Below are positions 1 to 54,889 of a stretch of 64,000 bases of DNA, piece by piece. Origin of the DNA: Actinomycetes bacterium (GTDB lineage Bacteria; Actinomycetota; Thermoleophilia; RBG-16-64-13); the NCBI GenBank assembly GCA_024637035.1, contig JAGXFW010000023.1:217139-281138 (forward strand), read 5' to 3'. Position numbers and translations under genes: made by a program. Under the pieces are notes generated by a model. That model was not told the origin of the DNA. It saw nothing but the letters and a program-made list of their open reading frames with translations, and did not search any database. The stretch's first letter is position 1, and every line of letters begins with the position of its first letter.

Positions 1-68
1 TGCGCTGTGATGGCGTCGAAGACACTGGGCGCTCTGTCGCTGTCGAACTGAAGCAAGACCTTCCTCAT
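1..68 (-). CDS. 5' end (22 codons) of a methylene-tetrahydromethanopterin dehydrogenase-like gene (MtdA/MtdB family); continues beyond window start
   Basis: Reverse complement of 1..68 reads MRKVLLQFDSDRAPSVFDAITA, closely matching the recalled N-terminus of MtdB (M-KLL-QFD-D--PSVFD). AAGGAGGTG Shine-Dalgarno 8 nt upstream of the ATG at 66-68. Confidence 0.45.
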   Translation of the reverse strand, partial: MRKVLLQFDSDRAPSVFDAITA

Positions 69-191
69 CGCATGCCACCTCCTTGGGCTCCTCGAGCCCT
101 CTCGATCCGGCGATCGACACCACGGCTTCGTAAGTAGCCGCCTGTATACTCCCTTCCCAACCGTAATCAGCGGCCGGGGAGGGGACCGAGC

Positions 192-812
192 ATGCACCGA
201 CTGCGAGCACTCGCGATGCAGCAGGGGTGGATCTACGAGACCATCGTTTCGACGTATTGTGGTGGAGAGCCCCACGCCGCCCCGATCGGAGTCCGCGCGG
301 AAGGCCTCGACACGCTGCGCATGGAGATCTTCGATTCCTCCCAGACTCTCACGGGGATACTCGACACGGGACTGTTCACGGTCGGCTTCCCCTCCGATGT
401 CACCATGTTCCACGCGGCCCTGTTCACCCCGGGACTCCTCGTCTTCGAGGAAGCGCGAAGCGTCTCGGCGCCCGTCGTTGTCGGCTGCGTTGCCACCGTG
501 GAACTCGCCCTTCGCGAGGCGATCCCGGCACCTCCCCGCGTCAGAATATCCGGGGAGGTCGTGCGTGCCGAAGTCCAGGTGGAGTCGCCTGCGAACCTCA
601 GGTTGTTCAATCGGGCTGAGGGCTTGCTGGTGGAAAGCCTCATCCTGGCCACTCGCCTGCAATACCTAGACGAAGAAACGGTTCGAAGATCGCTCGAAGA
701 GAACCGCCGCGTGATCCGCAAGGTCGCCCCAGGGTCGATCTGGGAGACGAAGATGGCTGACCTCATGGGCCACATCGGCGGCGCGGTCATCGCTCCTCCG
801 CCTCAACCTTGA
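192..812 (+). CDS. DUF447-family protein (H4MPT-cluster 'orf19'-type, FMN-binding split-barrel-like)
   Basis: 206-aa ORF; sequence pattern recalled from DUF447 proteins found in methanopterin biosynthesis neighbourhoods; context next to RFAP synthase. Confidence 0.5.
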   Translation: MHRLRALAMQQGWIYETIVSTYCGGEPHAAPIGVRAEGLDTLRMEIFDSSQTLTGILDTGLFTVGFPSDVTMFHAALFTPGLLVFEEARSVSAPVVVGCVATVELALREAIPAPPRVRISGEVVRAEVQVESPANLRLFNRAEGLLVESLILATRLQYLDEETVRRSLEENRRVIRKVAPGSIWETKMADLMGHIGGAVIAPPPQP

Positions 813-1782
813 TCTGCGCCCCCCGGTTCCGCCCTGCGGCCACGAAGACGACCCCTCCTCCGGAACTCCTCGCCACGAACTCGCGTACCTCCTCCTCCAC
901 ACGCTTCGAGCGTTCCGCGTCGACAAGCCCATAAACGGCCGGTCCCCACGAACTCTGCCCCGCTCCGAAAGCCCCGGCGCGCAGCATCACGTCGATGGCC
1001 CCGGCCGCGTCTCCGTCGCCGTAGATCCCACCCTGCACGCTCTCGAAGTAGAGCCCCGTCTTGCGGTCGATGGCCGTGAGGGCGCAGCCGAACTCGGCGA
1101 TGTCTTCCTCCACCAAGGCCGGCATGAGCTTGAGTTGGGTGAGCCTGCATATCTCTTCCGAGGCCCGGACAGGTGGTGAGAGCGCCCCGAAAGCCCTCTC
1201 TTCCCTCGAGCCGTTGAGGCCCAGACTCGAGCCTGGGATCGCCACGACGAAACGCCAGGCGGAGGGGAAGTCCCGCCGGAAGACCACGGTCGGCATCGCG
1301 CAGTCGTCCTCTCGATCCTTCTTGCGGCCAGCATCGATTATGAACCCACCGGTCTGGAAGGCTGCTACTCCGATCCCCGACCGTCTGCCCCTACCCACGG
1401 CGCGCGCCACCTCATCAGCGTCCAGGTGCAGGCCGAGCACCTTCGCTAGTCCTGTCCCCAACGCCAGCCCGAGTTGCGTCCCCGAGCCGAGCCCAACGTG
1501 CTCCGAGATCCTTTCGCGGACCTCGACAGAGACCCGAGGCTCTACGGAGAAGCGGTGGCAGAAACGACGCACGATACCCTCGATCTCACCGCGCTCGTCT
1601 CCTACAACCTGCAGGGAGTCATGCGTCTGGAGCACGAGCGAAGTGCAGGGCGCATCCAGCGCGACCCCTATGCTTCCATAGCAGCGCCCGACGTCTTCAC
1701 TCAGGTTCGTGAAGCCGACGTGCAACCTGCAGCCGGTCGCCACGGAGACCTTCACGGCTGCTCTGGGGGTCGTCGTGAGCAT
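787..1782 (-). CDS. mptG: beta-ribofuranosylaminobenzene 5'-phosphate (RFAP) synthase, GHMP-kinase fold (methanopterin biosynthesis)
   Basis: ORF 787..2178 trimmed to the ATG at 1780-1782 (MLTTTPRAAVKVSVATGCRLHVGF... typical RFAP-synthase N-terminus; ~332 aa). GHMP-like GLGSGTQLGLALG motif. The upstream 130 codons are an antisense extension over the flavoprotein gene. Confidence 0.7.
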   Translation of the reverse strand: MLTTTPRAAVKVSVATGCRLHVGFTNLSEDVGRCYGSIGVALDAPCTSLVLQTHDSLQVVGDERGEIEGIVRRFCHRFSVEPRVSVEVRERISEHVGLGSGTQLGLALGTGLAKVLGLHLDADEVARAVGRGRRSGIGVAAFQTGGFIIDAGRKKDREDDCAMPTVVFRRDFPSAWRFVVAIPGSSLGLNGSREERAFGALSPPVRASEEICRLTQLKLMPALVEEDIAEFGCALTAIDRKTGLYFESVQGGIYGDGDAAGAIDVMLRAGAFGAGQSSWGPAVYGLVDAERSKRVEEEVREFVARSSGGGVVFVAAGRNRGAQIKVEAEER

Positions 1783-2318
1783 CGCGCCAGCGCCCCTTCT
1801 ATCTCGTCTGGACCTGAGAGAACGATCACACCATCCATCGCAGCGAGCTTCGCGCAGTTCTCGATATCCACAGGCCGAATCGCCAACTCGAGCTTCTCCC
1901 CGCCGGGCAGGGTGGTGACCGTGGTCCCCGGGTGCTGATCGACAGGCAACAGGAAGACGGGCACATCCGTCTTGTTCGTTTGTGCCACCGAGTTCGTGAT
2001 GATGGTGTCGGCCACGCCATGCGCGATCTTCGCCGCCGAGTTCGCCGTCAGCGGGGCCACCAGAAGACAATCGAAACGGCCGGTCTGGAGCCTGCCTACT
2101 ATGAACGGCGTGTTGGCATCCTCTTCGATCAGCACGTCCTTGGCCATCGCCTCCAACTGCTCCCAGAGCTTGTACCAACGCACCACCTTGACCGCCGCCT
2201 GGGACAGCACCGCGGTGACCTGGACATCGCCTTTCTCCAGTACGGCCGACAAGGCGGCGAAAGTCTCCGGCATCAGGTCACCGGAACCTGTGATCCCCCA
2301 CACCAGTTTTAGAGTCAT
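1752..2318 (-). CDS. AfpA/DmrB-type flavoprotein (probable dihydromethanopterin reductase)
   Basis: 188 aa, PF02441-like N-terminus LKLVWGITGSGDLMPETF (W-ITG-G-L, archaeal AfpA/bacterial DmrB pattern rather than UbiX GxSGASG). Immediately upstream of and overlapping mptG. Confidence 0.5.
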   Translation of the reverse strand: MTLKLVWGITGSGDLMPETFAALSAVLEKGDVQVTAVLSQAAVKVVRWYKLWEQLEAMAKDVLIEEDANTPFIVGRLQTGRFDCLLVAPLTANSAAKIAHGVADTIITNSVAQTNKTDVPVFLLPVDQHPGTTVTTLPGGEKLELAIRPVDIENCAKLAAMDGVIVLSGPDEIEGALARCSRRPPEQP

Positions 2319-2323
2319 ACGGC

Positions 2324-2974
2324 CTACCTCCCTACAGGACGGTCACCCACGACAAGGCGCGTCACTTCGATCAGGCGGTCGACCGACCGGCGCACCGAAG
2401 CCATACCCTCTTCGTCGGCCTCCGCGCCCTCCGCTCCCAAGTCTCTCGACCACACGGCGCCACCGAGGTTCGCTCCGAACGACCCGCCGCCCACGGGGAT
2501 CATCTCGCTGATCACATAGAAGTCCATCATGGAGTGCAGCGTCGGTTCCTGACCGCCCGTTCGGTCTCCACCCACCGCGATGCCCATGCCGACTTTGTTC
2601 CTGAACACCTTCGGATCCTGCGCCACCAGTGCCCGACAGCGATCGAGAACCGCCTTGAGCTGCCCGCTGATCTGCCCCTGATAACAGGGGCTCCCGAGGA
2701 TCCAGGCATCGGCTCGTTGCATCAGTGGATAGAGATCGGCCATATCGTCCTTGTGGACACACCCTTGTCGTTTCCTAACGCAATAGTCGCAGTGGATGCA
2801 GAACTCGATGGTCTTCTTGCGAACGCTGTAGTAGTCCACCTCTACTCCGTGCTGCTCGTGCGCGTATCTCAGCGCCGCGTTGACGGCGTGGTGTGTCGAC
2901 TGCCTGCGCGGACTCCCCGAGATGCCCAGAAGCCGTATACCCGTTCCGCTCGTGGGGCTCACCATGTCACGCAT
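2324..2974 (-). CDS. iron-sulfur flavoprotein / NADPH-dependent FMN reductase family protein
   Basis: Start chosen at MRDMVSP (AGGTGG upstream). LLGISGSPRRQS flavodoxin-like NADPH-FMN reductase N-terminus plus compact Cys cluster CIHCDYC...C (Isf-type). Confidence 0.6.
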   Translation of the reverse strand: MRDMVSPTSGTGIRLLGISGSPRRQSTHHAVNAALRYAHEQHGVEVDYYSVRKKTIEFCIHCDYCVRKRQGCVHKDDMADLYPLMQRADAWILGSPCYQGQISGQLKAVLDRCRALVAQDPKVFRNKVGMGIAVGGDRTGGQEPTLHSMMDFYVISEMIPVGGGSFGANLGGAVWSRDLGAEGAEADEEGMASVRRSVDRLIEVTRLVVGDRPVGR

Positions 2975-3044
2975 GCCACCTCTCGCTTGCGCCGGCCGGC
3001 TTGGCCGGCCGGCGCATGAGGTACCGGTCCAGAGTCGCCGAGTA

Positions 3045-3767
3045 CTATGACTCGTCTCCTCCGCTCTTGAGGCCGGCAACGTAGTCGTACACGAAGGCCG
3101 CCAACAGACCTCCTACGATCGGTCCGATGATGTAGATGGGGAACTTCTCCCAGCCACTCGTCGTGCCCCAGAACGTCTCGGTGAGCAGCGGACCGAAGGT
3201 ACGCGCGGGGTTCATCGAAGCACCGGCGATCGGGCCGGTCACGATGATGTCCGCAGTCACGACCAGTCCGATGGCCAGCCCTGCGAACCCGGCGGAGGCC
3301 CTCTTGTCGACCGCCGCTCCCCAGATCACCAGAACGAGGAAGAAGGTCGTCACGGCCTCTATCAGGATAGCCTGCCAGTAGTTGACGCCGTCACCGGGCA
3401 TCGTGTGACCAAGTCCGGCGTCAACGGCGCGCGTGCCGACTATCGCAACGATCACCAGCGAAGCCGCGACCGCACCGATCAGCTGAGCGACGATGTACGC
3501 CATGAGGTCCTTGGACGGAAAGCGGCCGGTGGCCCACAACGCGATGCTCACGGCTGGGTTGATGTGAGTTCCCGAGATATGCCCGAAAGCGTAGATCATT
3601 ATCATGACGGCGAAGCCGAATGAAAGGCCGATCAACAGCAGGCCCGCGGATTCGACGCCGCCGAAGAACACAACCGAAGTCACTACGGAACCCGTGCCCA
3701 AGAATACGAGCACGAAGGTACCGATCAGCTCCGCGATGGCGCGCTTCATCAGTGTTGGCTGCGGCAC
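3045..3767 (-). CDS. MIP-family channel (aquaporin/aquaglyceroporin)
   Basis: Two NPA boxes (HINPAVS and NPARTFGP), six hydrophobic helices, 240 aa. Confidence 0.85.
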   Translation of the reverse strand: MPQPTLMKRAIAELIGTFVLVFLGTGSVVTSVVFFGGVESAGLLLIGLSFGFAVMIMIYAFGHISGTHINPAVSIALWATGRFPSKDLMAYIVAQLIGAVAASLVIVAIVGTRAVDAGLGHTMPGDGVNYWQAILIEAVTTFFLVLVIWGAAVDKRASAGFAGLAIGLVVTADIIVTGPIAGASMNPARTFGPLLTETFWGTTSGWEKFPIYIIGPIVGGLLAAFVYDYVAGLKSGGDES

Positions 3768-3886: not shown

Positions 3887-5416
3887 TCAGACGGCGAGGT
3901 GCCACTGGCAGTACCCTTTGGCGCCTGTACCCAGGCCGGTCGCCATCGGGACGTTCCGCTTGATCAGCGAGCATGTGGCGCAATCCTTGCAGCCACGAAC
4001 CGGTGCTCCCGGAGTACCCGGATCGGCAGCCACGATGTTGGTCATCAGCGTGGCTGTGGTGCATTCGGGCGTCAGGAAGCACGGGAAGTCGGACAACGTC
4101 ATCAGGGCCGCGAAGCGCTGCGTGATGGCGCAGGCCGGATACGTGTAGCGCTGCGGGTTGCTGATGACCTCGTTGTTGTCGACGGTGCTGAGGTCGACCT
4201 CCACGCCCTTGATCTTGCCGCCGGAGCCTAGCGGGGTGATATCGAGGATGCTCTCGCCGCGCTTGAGGATATCCATGAAGTCGACGTTGTGTAGCTCGTC
4301 GGCCTCGCCCCGGTCGGGATGCATGGCGCAGTAGTTGTGGAACCGCTTGTTCAGCAGATCGATCACCATGGGCACGGTGAAGCTATCTTTCCACAGGATA
4401 TAGGCAGATGCGCAGGCCGTCGACCCCGTGGCCACCGAAAGAACGTCATACACGCTCTTGAACGCATCCTGCTTGAGAGCACGGTTCAAGGTGTTCTCCA
4501 ACACACCCGTCACCGACTCGTAGATGGCGAAAACCATATCGTCGGCGAACATATTGTACGCGGACTGAGCGATGTGGTGGGCGACGTCCCCCACGCAGTA
4601 CGCCGGCACGGCGGTGATGTTGGCCGGGTGCACGCCCGCCTTCATGGCAGCGACGATAGTCGGCCGCATCCTGTCTTTGTACTGCGCCATGTACTTACGG
4701 GTGTCGAACGACGTGTGCGGTCCGTGCCCACCCAGGTTGTGGGTGTCCATCAACTGAGCCTGGGCAGCGGAGGGTTCGCGGTAGATGAACTGCAGCATGT
4801 CGATCTCGGCCTGCTCGGCCTCGGCCAGCGTCTTGCCGGACTCGATGGCACCGCGGAGGGCACCTGCAAGGCCGTAGGACGTGTTCATGCCCCACGACTT
4901 ACACGCCAGAATCGTCTTCTTGTGGTCTGCCGGGATGTCCAAGCCGATGAGGATCTGGTTGACCAGGTTCGGCACAGAGCCTACGGACATGGCGAAGTCC
5001 ACCACGCAGGTCGGGCCGTACATGCCCCCGTAGCGTCGCACCGCTTCCCGCCCAACCAAAGCCTTGTTGGCTCCGATGGCGTCGATGAACTTCCACATCG
5101 AATCCTTGAAGGCCGAATCTTCCTCGTACAGAATCTCGAGGATGGGCGGAGTCTGGTAGTGCTCCACGAAGGGATCATCTTCGGGACGCACCGTCTCGCA
5201 CAGGCTCGTCATGATGTCGAAGTGGGCATTCACCGAGTCAACGTGGAGGGCGATGACCTCCTTGGACTGCCCCTCGGCCGCCGTCATCTTGTTCACGGCG
5301 TCCACGTAGGGCTTGGCGTCCGTAACCTTGAACGTCCCACCCCTGTTGGCCTTGTTCACACCGAACACGGCCTTCGTAGCTCCGACTGCTTCGGTGATCA
5401 TCTTCTCGTACAGCGA
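3887..5416 (-). CDS. conserved hypothetical protein, 509 aa, Cys-motif C-terminus (function unknown)
   Basis: Long ORF 3887..5620 trimmed to MSLYEKMITEAV at 5416, which has a GGGAGG Shine-Dalgarno 5 nt upstream. C-terminal motif GCKDCATCS...CQWH. No family confidently recognised. Confidence 0.5.
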   Translation of the reverse strand, partial: SLYEKMITEAVGATKAVFGVNKANRGGTFKVTDAKPYVDAVNKMTAAEGQSKEVIALHVDSVNAHFDIMTSLCETVRPEDDPFVEHYQTPPILEILYEEDSAFKDSMWKFIDAIGANKALVGREAVRRYGGMYGPTCVVDFAMSVGSVPNLVNQILIGLDIPADHKKTILACKSWGMNTSYGLAGALRGAIESGKTLAEAEQAEIDMLQFIYREPSAAQAQLMDTHNLGGHGPHTSFDTRKYMAQYKDRMRPTIVAAMKAGVHPANITAVPAYCVGDVAHHIAQSAYNMFADDMVFAIYESVTGVLENTLNRALKQDAFKSVYDVLSVATGSTACASAYILWKDSFTVPMVIDLLNKRFHNYCAMHPDRGEADELHNVDFMDILKRGESILDITPLGSGGKIKGVEVDLSTVDNNEVISNPQRYTYPACAITQRFAALMTLSDFPCFLTPECTTATLMTNIVAADPGTPGAPVRGCKDCATCSLIKRNVPMATGLGTGAKGYCQWHLAV

Positions 5417-5590
5417 CATTGTTCCCTCCCAGTCCTGTTCGACCCACATCTGTCTCTGGGAGAAGCGCGACGGCAGATCCATCTGCTCCCTCTCCCCCTC
5501 GAGTGGCCGGGTCGTGCTCTCGGATCCCCGCGCCCGTTCCCCGGGTTCAGGGATGAGAACGAAAAAACCGACCCACAAAGAGTCTCCTCT

Positions 5591-5656
5591 TGGCAGCTCG
5601 GCCGTGTTCAAGCGGAACACCTACAGCCTGGCAGTCCCTTCCGCAGGGTAGCCTGT
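5591..5656 (-). promoter_or_regulatory. copy A of a conserved ~68-nt element, ~175 nt upstream of the 509-aa gene
   Basis: Shares tggcagctcggc ... gcggaa ... tcccttccgcagggtagcc with copy B at 6223..6290 (~80% identity; perfectly conserved 19-mer and 12-mer). Confidence 0.45.
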
Positions 5657-5820
5657 ACTTATCCTACGATGCCACTCGTCTAGCGAAACTCTTTGAAACC
5701 GTTCGAGACTCAACAACAGTCTCTCTCGCACACCAACTCAGTCACATCTCTCGGCCGACACCACCTCCTCGGCCGCTCGGCCGCTAGCGCTTCCGCTAGC
5801 CGCATCGAGCCTTCGCAAGC

Positions 5821-6024
5821 CTACGTCAGCACCTCGGCGCATTCAGCGCACAGGATCCTCGGAAGCTTCTTCTTGGCCTTCGTGCTGGGGAATGGATAGC
5901 CGCCTTCCCACAACTCGACGTCTTCCCTGATCGCATGGTCCTTACAGAGACCCATCCCACAGACGATACAAACGCCTACGGCTACCGTCTCCACGCCCGA
6001 CTGAGCGCACACGTAACACTGCAT
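5821..6024 (-). CDS. DUF2180-like small zinc-ribbon protein (4 CxxC pairs)
   Basis: 67 aa, MQCYVCAQ...CIVCGMGLC...CAECA; GGGAGGAAGGAGG Shine-Dalgarno upstream. Confidence 0.55.
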   Translation of the reverse strand: MQCYVCAQSGVETVAVGVCIVCGMGLCKDHAIREDVELWEGGYPFPSTKAKKKLPRILCAECAEVLT

Positions 6025-6200
6025 ACCTACCTCCTTCCTCCCTGCGTTCGAAGTGCATTACACACGATTCCTACACCGCCGCTACTCCGGCTGCGCCTCC
6101 TGACGCGGGCATCAGGCACTCTTCAGGCGGCAGGCACGGTCGCGATCTCCTCACCTCCTCCCTTCTTCACTTCGCCACGGTTTGAACCCGGGAAAGCAAA

Positions 6201-6236
6201 CAGCCGAGCTGCCAGAAATACCTGGCAGCTCGGCTG
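6201..6236 (-). other. perfect 15-bp stem hairpin (CAGCCGAGCTGCCAG-AAATAC-CTGGCAGCTCGGCTG) overlapping the 5' part of repeat copy B
   Basis: Exact inverted repeat read directly from the sequence. Its right arm is the conserved 12-mer of the repeated element. Confidence 0.5.
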
Positions 6237-6290
6237 TGCGTTGGCGGAAAAACCAAACAGCCTTGCCGTCCCTTCCGCAGGGTAGCCCGT
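6223..6290 (-). promoter_or_regulatory. copy B of the conserved ~68-nt element, ~195 nt upstream of the DUF2180 gene
   Basis: See copy A. Same orientation and nearly the same spacing to the downstream start codon. Confidence 0.45.
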
Positions 6291-6365
6291 GACGGTCGTT
6301 CGCCAACCATATGCGAAGGGTGGCGCGGTTGTCAAGCGGTCGGGAGAGCCCGACTCCGCACCTCC

Positions 6366-6692
6366 CTACAGGATCACGCCCTCGTGCGACAGCCGCGTTC
6401 GCGTGCTCTCACGAAGGGAGGCTTCGGATATCACCTCCACCTTTCGCCCCAGCAACGCCTCGAGCTCAAGCACCAGCGCGATGTGATCCTGGGCCGTCGC
6501 CACCGGCAAGAACCAGACGACCAAGTCAACGTCGCTGTCCGGACCGGCTTCGCCTCGCGCGACGGAACCGATCAGCCGTACGTTCGCTGCGTGATGGTCG
6601 GCAGCGATCCGCACGATATCCGCCCGCCTTCCAAGGACCTCTTCGGTGATACCCACGTGCCCGGCGCTGCCCTTAGCCCACGGCTTCCTCAA
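6366..6692 (-). CDS. nucleotidyltransferase-domain protein (MNT/antitoxin-like), no HEPN partner adjacent
   Basis: IGSVARGEAGPDSDVDLVVWF = GS-x9-DxD minimal nucleotidyltransferase motif. Start uncertain (TTG at 6692 or GTG at 6657). Confidence 0.55.
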   Translation of the reverse strand: MRKPWAKGSAGHVGITEEVLGRRADIVRIAADHHAANVRLIGSVARGEAGPDSDVDLVVWFLPVATAQDHIALVLELEALLGRKVEVISEASLRESTRTRLSHEGVIL

Positions 6693-54405: not shown

Positions 54406-54889
54406 TATTGTCGACCCCGTGTCACGCCGGCGGTGGACCACGGTTCGGAATCGGTAGAGCCGGAATCGGTCCGTTTTTGTCAGAGTAGAATTGCGTGGTT
54501 GCAGACGAATAATCCGCCGGCTTTCCAAACTAGCTGCAAATGGCGCATTCCTAGACTCAATGCGGTTGATTCGCCGCCTGAAGAAGTCCTTGACAGACCC
54601 CTTGGATGCCTATAGGCTATCGCCTGAGAGTATAAGGAGTTGGAGGCGTAGATCCCCGTTTCCGTACCTGGGCACTTGGGGCGGGGGGAGCCAGTAGTGC
54701 AACCGGCCATGGGGATGGCCGGTTTCTTTCGTTTTTCCGGTTCATCTCAAGAACATGAGACAGTCACTTCAGACCGGGGCCTCGGCCCCGGTCGACTCGT
54801 CTCTAGAGCACTACTACCTGCCGTAGTAGTGCCGATGTTCACGAACTCCTTTCCTCCAGAGACTAATGTGGAAAGGAGGTGAATCGCAA

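Follow-up and report, generated by a model that had tools for sequence, protein, structure and literature searches.

A conserved leader RNA upstream of DUF2180 and DUF2193 genes as a candidate for a new riboswitch class

A stretch of 64 kb of contig JAGXFW010000023.1 from a bacterium of the Thermoleophilia (Actinomycetota), hereafter referred to as the window, contains two copies of an element of ~65 nucleotides on the minus strand, with their cores at 6287..6224 (copy B) and 5653..5592 (copy A). We propose that each copy represents the sensor domain of a cis-acting leader RNA, which is most likely a metabolite-binding riboswitch controlling transcription termination. The element is conserved in sequence and structure, it overlaps an intrinsic terminator, and it is associated with a small set of genes. 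Thus, a covarying structured leader domain, a mutually exclusive expression platform and a coherent gene set across distant taxa, the features by which riboswitches are generally recognised, come together at these loci.

The two copies and the fold of the RNA

A preliminary description of this region, made from the sequence alone, had pointed to a repeated element of ~68 nucleotides upstream of two consecutive genes, and its account of the repeat was borne out in several respects. Global alignment of 5591..5656 with 6223..6290 yielded 55 identical positions out of 68 (81%), as compared to 50-52% in the 70 nucleotides flanking the copies on each side. The perfect 19-mer described for both copies, GGCTACCCTGCGGAAGGGA, has exactly two matches in the window, both on the minus strand (5635..5653 and 6269..6287), and still just two when up to three mismatches are allowed, where 0.02 would be expected by chance. 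The perfect 12-mer, GCCGAGCTGCCA, is likewise present on the minus strand at 5591..5602 and 6223..6234. A third exact occurrence of GCCGAGCTGCCA, on the plus strand at 6203..6214, corresponds to the opposite arm of the hairpin at copy B. The two copies indeed share the minus-strand orientation and a similar spacing to the start codons, with 171 nucleotides between the 3′-end of copy A and the ATG of the DUF2193 gene (5419) and 198 nucleotides between the 3′-end of copy B and the ATG of the DUF2180 gene (6024). Moreover, the claim that nothing similar exists elsewhere in the 64 kb agrees with both the mismatch search and a covariance model of the element, which was built from 39 copies and finds two places only (copy B with 79.1 bits, E = 2e-17, and copy A with 75.4 bits, E = 2e-16).

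Minimum free energy folding of copy A alone was uninformative (z = -0.5), and the structure was therefore taken from comparative analysis. This analysis yielded a three-way junction formed by a closing helix P0 of two base pairs, a P1 hairpin (CCC/GGG) and a long P2 hairpin. In the 5′ to 3′ direction, the RNA comprises GG (P0), the junction nucleotides CUA, P1 (CCC...GGG), a single A, P2, and CC (P0). The P1 loop is usually UGCGGAA. The 5′ arm of P2, which reads C-N-G-C, N-N, G-G-C-U-G-U, is followed by a loop of 16-30 nucleotides containing UUCCGC and by the complementary 3′ arm. An internal loop within P2 (N·U and NA·GA) is conserved, and its place is taken by Watson-Crick pairs (CC/GG) in one subgroup of the Thermoleophilia. 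The P1 loop and the P2 loop pair with each other over 5-7 base pairs, constituting a kissing interaction or pseudoknot.

The aptamer-like domain of copy B (6224..6287, minus strand), which was delineated by the covariance model match, the covariation counts and the loop-loop complementarity, follows this layout throughout. P0 pairs GG (6287-6286) with CC (6225-6224), the junction CUA occupies 6285-6283, and P1 pairs CCC (6282-6280) with GGG (6272-6270) around the loop UGCGGAA (6279-6273). The single A after P1 (6269) precedes P2, which consists of the 5′ arm 6268-6257, the loop 6256-6238 and the 3′ arm 6237-6226, and the loop-loop pairing joins UUCCGC (6249-6244) to GCGGAA (6278-6273). Copy A (5592..5653, minus strand) was likewise matched by the model and has the same structure, with P0 formed by GG (5653-5652) and CC (5593-5592), the junction CUA at 5651-5649, P1 formed by CCC (5648-5646) and GGG (5638-5636) with the loop 5645-5639, and the single A at 5635. 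Its P2 comprises the 5′ arm 5634-5623, the loop 5622-5606 including UUCCGC (5617-5612), and the 3′ arm 5605-5594. Two other pairings, namely 5′ GGCU with 3′ AGCU and GGCA with UGCC, were considered and rejected, as by inspection they are not kept in other sequences.

The comparative check for compensatory base changes proposed in the preliminary description revealed such changes, and the helices are preserved across at least three phyla. In the MAFFT alignment of 39 sequences, 83.8% of the cells pair, as compared to 79.5% upon shuffling and ~40% with slid partners, and 11 pairs are changed on both sides versus 5.6 +/- 1.1 in shuffled alignments. When 105 distinct sequences were aligned to the model, 84.4% of the cells pair (80.2 +/- 0.3 when shuffled, 21-45% when slid) and 15 pairs are changed on both sides, a number that none of 500 shuffles reached (8.2 +/- 1.3). 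Most of the covariation resides in P2, where GGCUG/CAGCC is replaced by GGUUG/CAACC, GACC/GGUC or AGUCG/CGGCU, and C-G by U-A at the base of the helix. The loop-loop interaction comprises at least five contiguous pairs in 90% of 113 unique RNAs, versus 39% with shuffled loops. Its arms fall into the classes GCGGAA/UUCCGC, ACGGAU/AUCCGU, GCGGAG/CUCCGC and GCGGAU/AUCUGC, and other lineages employ entirely different arms (GCAACG/CGUUGC, GCGACC/GGUUGC and CGCAAC/GUUGCG). The covariation thus supports the predicted P2 helix and the predicted pairing of the loops. The invariant positions (G6, C7, U8, A9, the P1 strands CCC/GGG, A45, G48, C124, G126 and the final CC) cluster at the junction, and the unpaired junction bases are invariant as well.

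A variant of the RNA was observed at the loci L101, L118, L154, L164 and L172 (e.g. L172, 3070-3151, minus strand). Here, P1 extends to 6 base pairs (CCCAUC/GAUGGG) and is closed by a GUUG tetraloop, and the usual 6-base-pair kissing arm is therefore absent.

Promoter, terminators and the proposed switch

A consensus scan of the minus strand revealed a promoter-like site upstream of copy B, composed of a -35 hexamer TTGACA (6335..6330), a spacer of 18 nucleotides and a -10 hexamer TATGGT (6311..6306). In six related loci TTGACA is invariant and a -10 sequence of the form TAnnnT is kept in register. Transcription from this predicted promoter would start ~10-15 nucleotides before the motif, and the transcript would thus begin almost directly with copy B. 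No promoter as clear as that of copy B was found before copy A, and copy A may serve as a second gate within the same transcript.

Both copies are followed by a GC-rich stem and a U-tract, the hallmarks of a Rho-independent terminator. For copy B, the terminator scan identified a 17-base-pair stem (6237..6200, minus strand) with the U-rich tail 6199..6190 (UUGCUUU), which folds with -59.7 kcal/mol (z = -5.2). For copy A, folding indicates an imperfect stem (5603..5568, minus strand) followed by UUUUUU (5567..5562), of which the scan detects the inner hairpin and the T-run; the terminator search across the homologues recovered it as well. The hairpin that the preliminary description had assigned to copy B as an additional cap is therefore real, with 17 pairs between 6237 and 6200, but it is neither confined to copy B, since copy A has a less perfect equivalent, nor a cap, as it constitutes the terminator of the expression platform.

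In both copies in the window, the 3′ arm of P2 together with the 3′ strand of P0 (ACAGCCGAGCUGCC) forms the 5′ arm of the terminator; in copy A, the 5′ arm of the terminator overlaps the 3′ arm of P2. This arrangement is common among the relatives: in 93 of 112 copies, a terminator hairpin with an energy of -10 kcal/mol or better begins within the 3′ arm of P2 and leads into a U-rich tail. Because the P2 3′ strand and P0 are shared by both structures, the aptamer fold and the terminator are mutually exclusive. Since the terminator is thermodynamically much stronger, termination would be the expected default, and folding of the aptamer should block termination and permit read-through, which corresponds to an ON switch.

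We therefore envisage the following scenario. Transcription is predicted to start upstream of GGCUACCC. Without ligand, the terminator would invade P2 and transcription would stop before the genes, yielding RNAs with 3′-ends at the U-tracts. A ligand bound in the junction would lock P0 and P2, thereby blocking the terminator and allowing transcription of the genes. Two such switches would act in series in the window. Copy B, placed just after the conserved predicted promoter, would gate the DUF2180 gene, and copy A would gate the genes for DUF2193, a MIP channel, an FMN reductase, a flavoprotein, a beta-RFAP-synthase-like protein and Mpt_N. The tandem and serial copies would provide a natural example of two-step gating in one operon.

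Two additional features were observed next to the copies. A gene for an MntA-like nucleotidyltransferase (antitoxin-type, weak NCBIfam match; 6366-6692, minus strand) lies directly upstream of copy B, and in the close relatives L001, L003, L086, L168 and L200 this gene is likewise found before the RNA. Between the stop codon of the DUF2180 gene and copy A, the palindrome GCTAGCGGAAGCGCTAGC (5783-5800, minus strand) is followed by the direct repeat GGCCGAGCGGCCGAGG, without a U-tract.

Distribution of the element and its downstream genes

To survey other genomes, 80 DUF2193 loci were taken, with one genome per species. The covariance model yielded 54 credible matches in these loci, all of them on the sense strand and upstream of the operon or of a second gene downstream of it. 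In these loci, the core motif precedes the gene in Thermoleophilia (Actinomycetota), Anaerolineae (Chloroflexota) and Syntrophobacterales (Desulfobacterota). In addition, metagenome contigs were scanned with an IUPAC pattern, which returned at least 120 stretches. Among the matches listed, the model confirms at least 75 copies, and ~40% of the 120 stretches lack a model match and represent chance matches. Altogether, the motif is present at more than 110 places in Actinomycetota (Thermoleophilia), Chloroflexota and Desulfobacterota. Cultured bacteria that carry it include Dethiosulfatarculus sandiegensis SPR (L063) and a Syntrophobacter.

Wherever the contig is long enough, the next gene downstream encodes DUF2180, DUF2193, the family termed X600 here (see below) or, once, Mpt_N. 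In the latter case (L172), the variant RNA described above is placed directly before Mpt_N, ATP-grasp_3 and X600. The sole exception to these four kinds of genes is L164, where a defence island (AbiEi/AbiEii, PIN and a DNA methylase) is inserted right after the RNA. Given that the same few kinds of genes lie downstream in different phyla, the element is not a generic repeat, and it is not noise of a single lineage either. The preliminary description had named three observations that would speak against its proposal, namely occurrence of the element at dozens of unrelated loci, lack of conservation in related genomes, and transcription starts downstream of it. Instead, the element is found upstream of the same few gene families, it is kept in related as well as in distant genomes, and the predicted promoter of copy B is located upstream of it. 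Of the two readings offered there, a regulator-binding site on the DNA and an RNA element in the 5′ leader, the data favour the RNA. Six loci (L029, L033, L042, L107, L112 and L182) harbor full tandem copies ~130-240 nucleotides apart, each with its own terminator; tandem copies are known from several riboswitch classes.

At Chloroflexia-type loci, the DUF2193 gene is preceded by a gene for a glutaredoxin-like CxC protein of 86 amino acids. This protein, with its CxC motif at the N-terminus, takes the place of DUF2180 between the RNA and DUF2193 in the Chloroflexia/Anaerolineae-type loci, as exemplified by L062 (3410-3670), L065 (3608-3871), L070 (3622-3882), L073 (3504-3785) and L078 (3601-3861).

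All genes under the proposed control in the window are encoded on the minus strand. Copy B is followed first by the gene (5821..6024) for the Cys-rich DUF2180 protein of 67 amino acids (Pfam PF09947, E = 9e-35). The first gene after copy A (3887..5419), which the preliminary description had listed as an unknown gene of 509 amino acids, has this length plus a stop codon and can now be assigned to the DUF2193 family (Pfam E = 1e-224). Pfam, NCBIfam and tblastn with the proteins of L204 and L205 further identified a MIP channel (3767..3045), an FMN reductase (FMN_red, 3079..2324) and a flavoprotein (PF02441, AfpA/DmrB-like; 2318..1752). They are followed by a beta-RFAP-synthase-family GHMP protein (1749..787; TIGR00144, 179 bits versus a cutoff of 113.5). 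The start of a gene for an Mpt_N protein, which resembles methylene-tetrahydromethanopterin (methylene-H4MPT) dehydrogenase, was detected at 68..3; its first 22 codons are present before the window edge cuts it. The same gene order was found in L204 and L205, and the minus-strand genes within 1..3767 are presumably co-transcribed in the same operon. A DUF447 gene (192..812) is encoded on the plus strand, opposite to the operon. The open reading frame of 463 amino acids annotated as 'GHMP' (787..2178) in fact spans two genes, those of the PF02441 flavoprotein and of the beta-RFAP-synthase-family protein; in relatives, the flavoprotein is either a separate gene or fused to the FMN reductase.

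Because of the Mpt_N start at 68..3, the operon appears to run past the left edge of the window into a cluster for H4MPT and one-carbon (C1) metabolism. Longer contigs reveal further genes of the cluster, namely Mpt_N, ATP-grasp_3, Fhc-like subunits (Molydop_binding, Molybdopterin, Amidohydro_3 and GXGXG), FTR and MCH, and Mpt_N homologues are present in the short flanks of more than 60 loci. These genes are those of tetrahydromethanopterin biosynthesis and of the H4MPT-linked pathway of C1 (formaldehyde) oxidation.

In many Thermoleophilia, the genes X600-LarC-LarB-LarC are located immediately before the RNA-controlled operon, and at L201 the series X600-LarC-LarB-LarC-CbiM lies beside NikR and CbiQO. 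Since LarB and LarC adjoin the operon, the system is linked to the nickel-pincer nucleotide cofactor. A search of the window for LarB, LarC and X600 found none of them.

Known RNA classes, rival explanations and the possible ligand

The covariance search against Rfam suggested in the preliminary description was run with all 4227 covariance models of Rfam 15, and no family matched the element. At the gathering threshold, the whole window yielded a c-di-GMP-II riboswitch only, which is not located on the element. Within the region 5300-6500, searched at E <= 10, only spurious miRNA-like matches on the terminator hairpin were obtained, and at 12 other motif-carrying loci, searched at E <= 1, no match fell on the motif. 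A literature search did not reveal a publication describing the motif, although supplementary motif lists are not indexed and an earlier description is possible. Likewise, none of the literature on DUF2193 concerns RNA, and for DUF2180 the search returned no literature matches. The element is therefore a candidate for a new riboswitch class, absent from Rfam 15 and from the searchable literature.

Architecturally, the nearest known system is the purine riboswitch (RF00167), in particular the adenine-responsive pbuE (ydhL) ON switch, in which ligand binding leads to read-through. Like the purine riboswitch, the RNA comprises a three-way junction with pairing distal loops, conserved unpaired junction bases and an aptamer 3′ strand that is part of the 5′ arm of the terminator. 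However, the purine model does not match the copies in the window at E <= 10 or the other copies at E <= 1. In contrast to the purine riboswitch, the junction contains CUA and A without the conserved purine core and its specificity pyrimidine, the closing helix comprises only 2 base pairs, and the long P2 contains a conserved internal loop. Moreover, the loops are joined by 5-7 Watson-Crick pairs instead of two pairs and base quadruples, and the regulon is unrelated to purines. The likeness is one of architecture only and is no evidence of membership in this class.

Thematically, the tetrahydrofolate (THF) riboswitches THF-I (RF01831) and THF-II (folE) and the ZTP (pfl) riboswitch are nearest, as they belong to C1 and folate metabolism. 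THF and ZTP switches regulate pterin or C1 metabolism, and H4MPT is the methanopterin-type analogue of tetrahydrofolate. THF-I forms a three-way junction with a long-range loop interaction, and the ZTP riboswitch, which contains a pseudoknot, is likewise of the ON type. Genes for folate transport and biosynthesis are typically turned off by THF switches. Unlike these, the RNA described here has no Rfam match and an unrelated sequence, its genes are of the methanopterin type (DUF2193, DUF2180, X600 and the H4MPT pathway), and it is predicted to be an ON switch. The NiCo (czcD) riboswitch shares the ON direction and a nickel gene context, given that LarB, LarC, NikR and CbiMQO are found near X600. 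In contrast to the NiCo riboswitch, which controls metal efflux and likewise gives no Rfam match here, the nickel genes are neighbours and not directly controlled, and none is present in the window.

Several points weigh against a metabolite-binding switch of the kind proposed. P0 comprises just 2 base pairs, with a compensatory change in one sequence only (L023, GG/CC to GA/UC). The three core pairs of P1 are invariant, and covariation therefore neither supports nor contradicts them; covariation in P1, as judged by eye, is confined to its extended form in the Chloroflexota-type variants (A-U, U-A and C-G pairs). As the metagenome pattern fixed GCTACCC, GGGAYNGY and CCGRGCYGCC, the invariance at these positions is partly circular for the metagenome half of the data, and the alignment in which the pairs were counted had itself been fitted to P0 and P2. 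A simple search did not detect a terminator at ~17% of the copies. Many DUF2193 loci lack a copy by covariance model scan (Synergistota, Desulfovibrionaceae and Caldisericota), and at L201 X600 lies beside NikR without the RNA. For an operon with cofactor-biosynthesis genes, an OFF switch would be the more usual arrangement. Finally, the sequences show the conservation, the fold, the overlap with the terminator and the gene association; that a small molecule binds directly, that binding turns the genes on, and which molecule it is, are inferences.

The same RNA and the same terminator switch might also respond to a trans-acting protein, for instance DUF2180, or to another RNA. We consider such a factor-dependent antiterminator leader unlikely, yet it is the rival that deserves most attention. 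Two hairpins, the second of which overlaps a terminator, are also the layout of ANTAR, PyrR and BglG-type systems, and in the ANTAR leaders (EutV/NasR/AmiR) they likewise stand before the genes with the second hairpin competing with the terminator. Moreover, the Cys-rich DUF2180 protein of 67 amino acids co-occurs with the RNA in most loci of Thermoleophilia and Desulfobacterota, and in the window its gene is placed between both copies. However, the Anaerolineae loci carry the RNA with no DUF2180 detectable within the flanks, and the Pfam results for the neighbouring genes, which cover the neighbourhoods only, contain neither an ANTAR domain nor another known RNA-binding antiterminator domain. 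The loops do not match the ANTAR hexaloops either: they comprise 7-11 and 16-30 nucleotides and pair with each other, in contrast to two short hairpins with hexanucleotide loops. In addition, an invariant unpaired junction, a kissing loop kept across three phyla and full tandem copies are typical of metabolite aptamers, and thus speak for the riboswitch.

A further rival, which we regard as improbable, holds that promoter, structured RNA of ~100 nucleotides and terminator constitute a stand-alone gene for a trans-acting small RNA that merely happens to lie beside these genes. The conserved predicted promoter immediately upstream of copy B and the very strong terminator immediately downstream would suit such a gene. 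As promoter and terminator flank the element, a short terminated transcript would be expected in any case. However, across phyla the element directly precedes the same gene families on their sense strand, whatever the order of the operon. Moreover, a terminator whose 5′ arm doubles as a strand of a covarying helix is what marks a cis-switch, and a stable small RNA would not need it. Even less credible is an operator for a shared transcription factor, which the preliminary description had offered as the alternative to an RNA element, or a generic repeat or mobile element: two similar sequences upstream of two neighbouring genes would fit either, but compensatory changes keep RNA helices, including G-U pairs that are meaningful on one strand only, the element is located downstream of the conserved predicted promoter and shares sequence with the terminator, it has no dyad symmetry of its own besides the terminator, and its two copies are the only ones in 64 kb, with none at unrelated genes.

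For the riboswitch, the most plausible ligand would be a metabolite related to C1 compounds or pterins and acting as an inducer of the pathway, as suggested by the ON logic, the MIP channel for small solutes, the H4MPT-type C1 and pterin context and the frequent LarB and LarC neighbours. In our subjective ranking, formaldehyde or methanol, or an adduct thereof, comes first, albeit with well under an even chance. An H4MPT-type pterin species such as methylene-H4MPT is clearly less likely, a nickel-pincer or nicotinate nucleotide or Ni2+ is improbable, and what remains of our expectation falls to something else or to a protein factor. OFF feedback by an end product on H4MPT biosynthesis was also considered and set aside, as it suits the gene content but not the architecture. 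On a tentative and rather bold view, about which we are more doubtful than hopeful, the RNA would be the first riboswitch class reporting methanopterin-type C1 status. It would bind formaldehyde or an adduct, a (methylene-)H4MPT-type pterin or a nickel-pincer or nicotinate nucleotide, and switch on DUF2193 with its [4Fe-4S] cluster, DUF2180, X600 and the MIP channel as an unrecognised set of enzymes in anaerobic Chloroflexota, Thermoleophilia and Desulfobacterota.

If confirmed, a new riboswitch class would add a ligand for which no RNA sensor is known so far, and it would provide an experimental handle on DUF2193, DUF2180 and X600, three conserved protein families. Knowing the ligand would help to identify the substrate or cofactor of a system found in anaerobes that are abundant and for the most part uncultured.

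Across many metagenomic lineages, DUF2193 proteins share 74-93% identity. On pyrite, the DUF2193 protein of Methanococcus voltae is induced 13-fold; it adopts a novel all-alpha fold and binds a [4Fe-4S] cluster, and in methanogens the gene adjoins MIP genes (PMC12375889). Our AlphaFold2 (AF2) model of DUF2193 is confident (predicted local distance difference test, pLDDT, 90.5) and all-alpha, and it has no neighbour in the PDB. X600 is a conserved family of ~593 amino acids, 76-92% identical across Chloroflexota and Thermoleophilia (e.g. L045, 6924-8753; L050, 7491-9272; L201, 8001-9782). It has no Pfam domain and no relative in the PDB, and its AF2 model is poor (pLDDT 52). In nearly every case, LarC-like (Ni_insertion) genes come after the X600 gene, and LarB often does as well. 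X600 may be a hitherto unrecognised protein that makes or uses the nickel-pincer cofactor. Users of this cofactor other than LarA are only now emerging (PMC13524815).

In genomes devoid of the RNA (Solidesulfovibrio, Acetomicrobium, Caldisericota and Synergistaceae), the genes upstream of DUF2193 did not include an informative regulator, and only pabB-like and transporter genes were found. In Acetomicrobium (L039, 835-2211, minus strand), a pabB-like chorismate-binding enzyme and an MFS transporter are encoded upstream of DUF2193; the pabB-like neighbour fits a methanopterin-type pathway requiring para-aminobenzoate.

The c-di-GMP-II riboswitch aptamer mentioned above (RF01786) is located at 54633-54717 on the plus strand of the window; it is of full length and scores 61.3 bits, as compared to the gathering score of 53.5.

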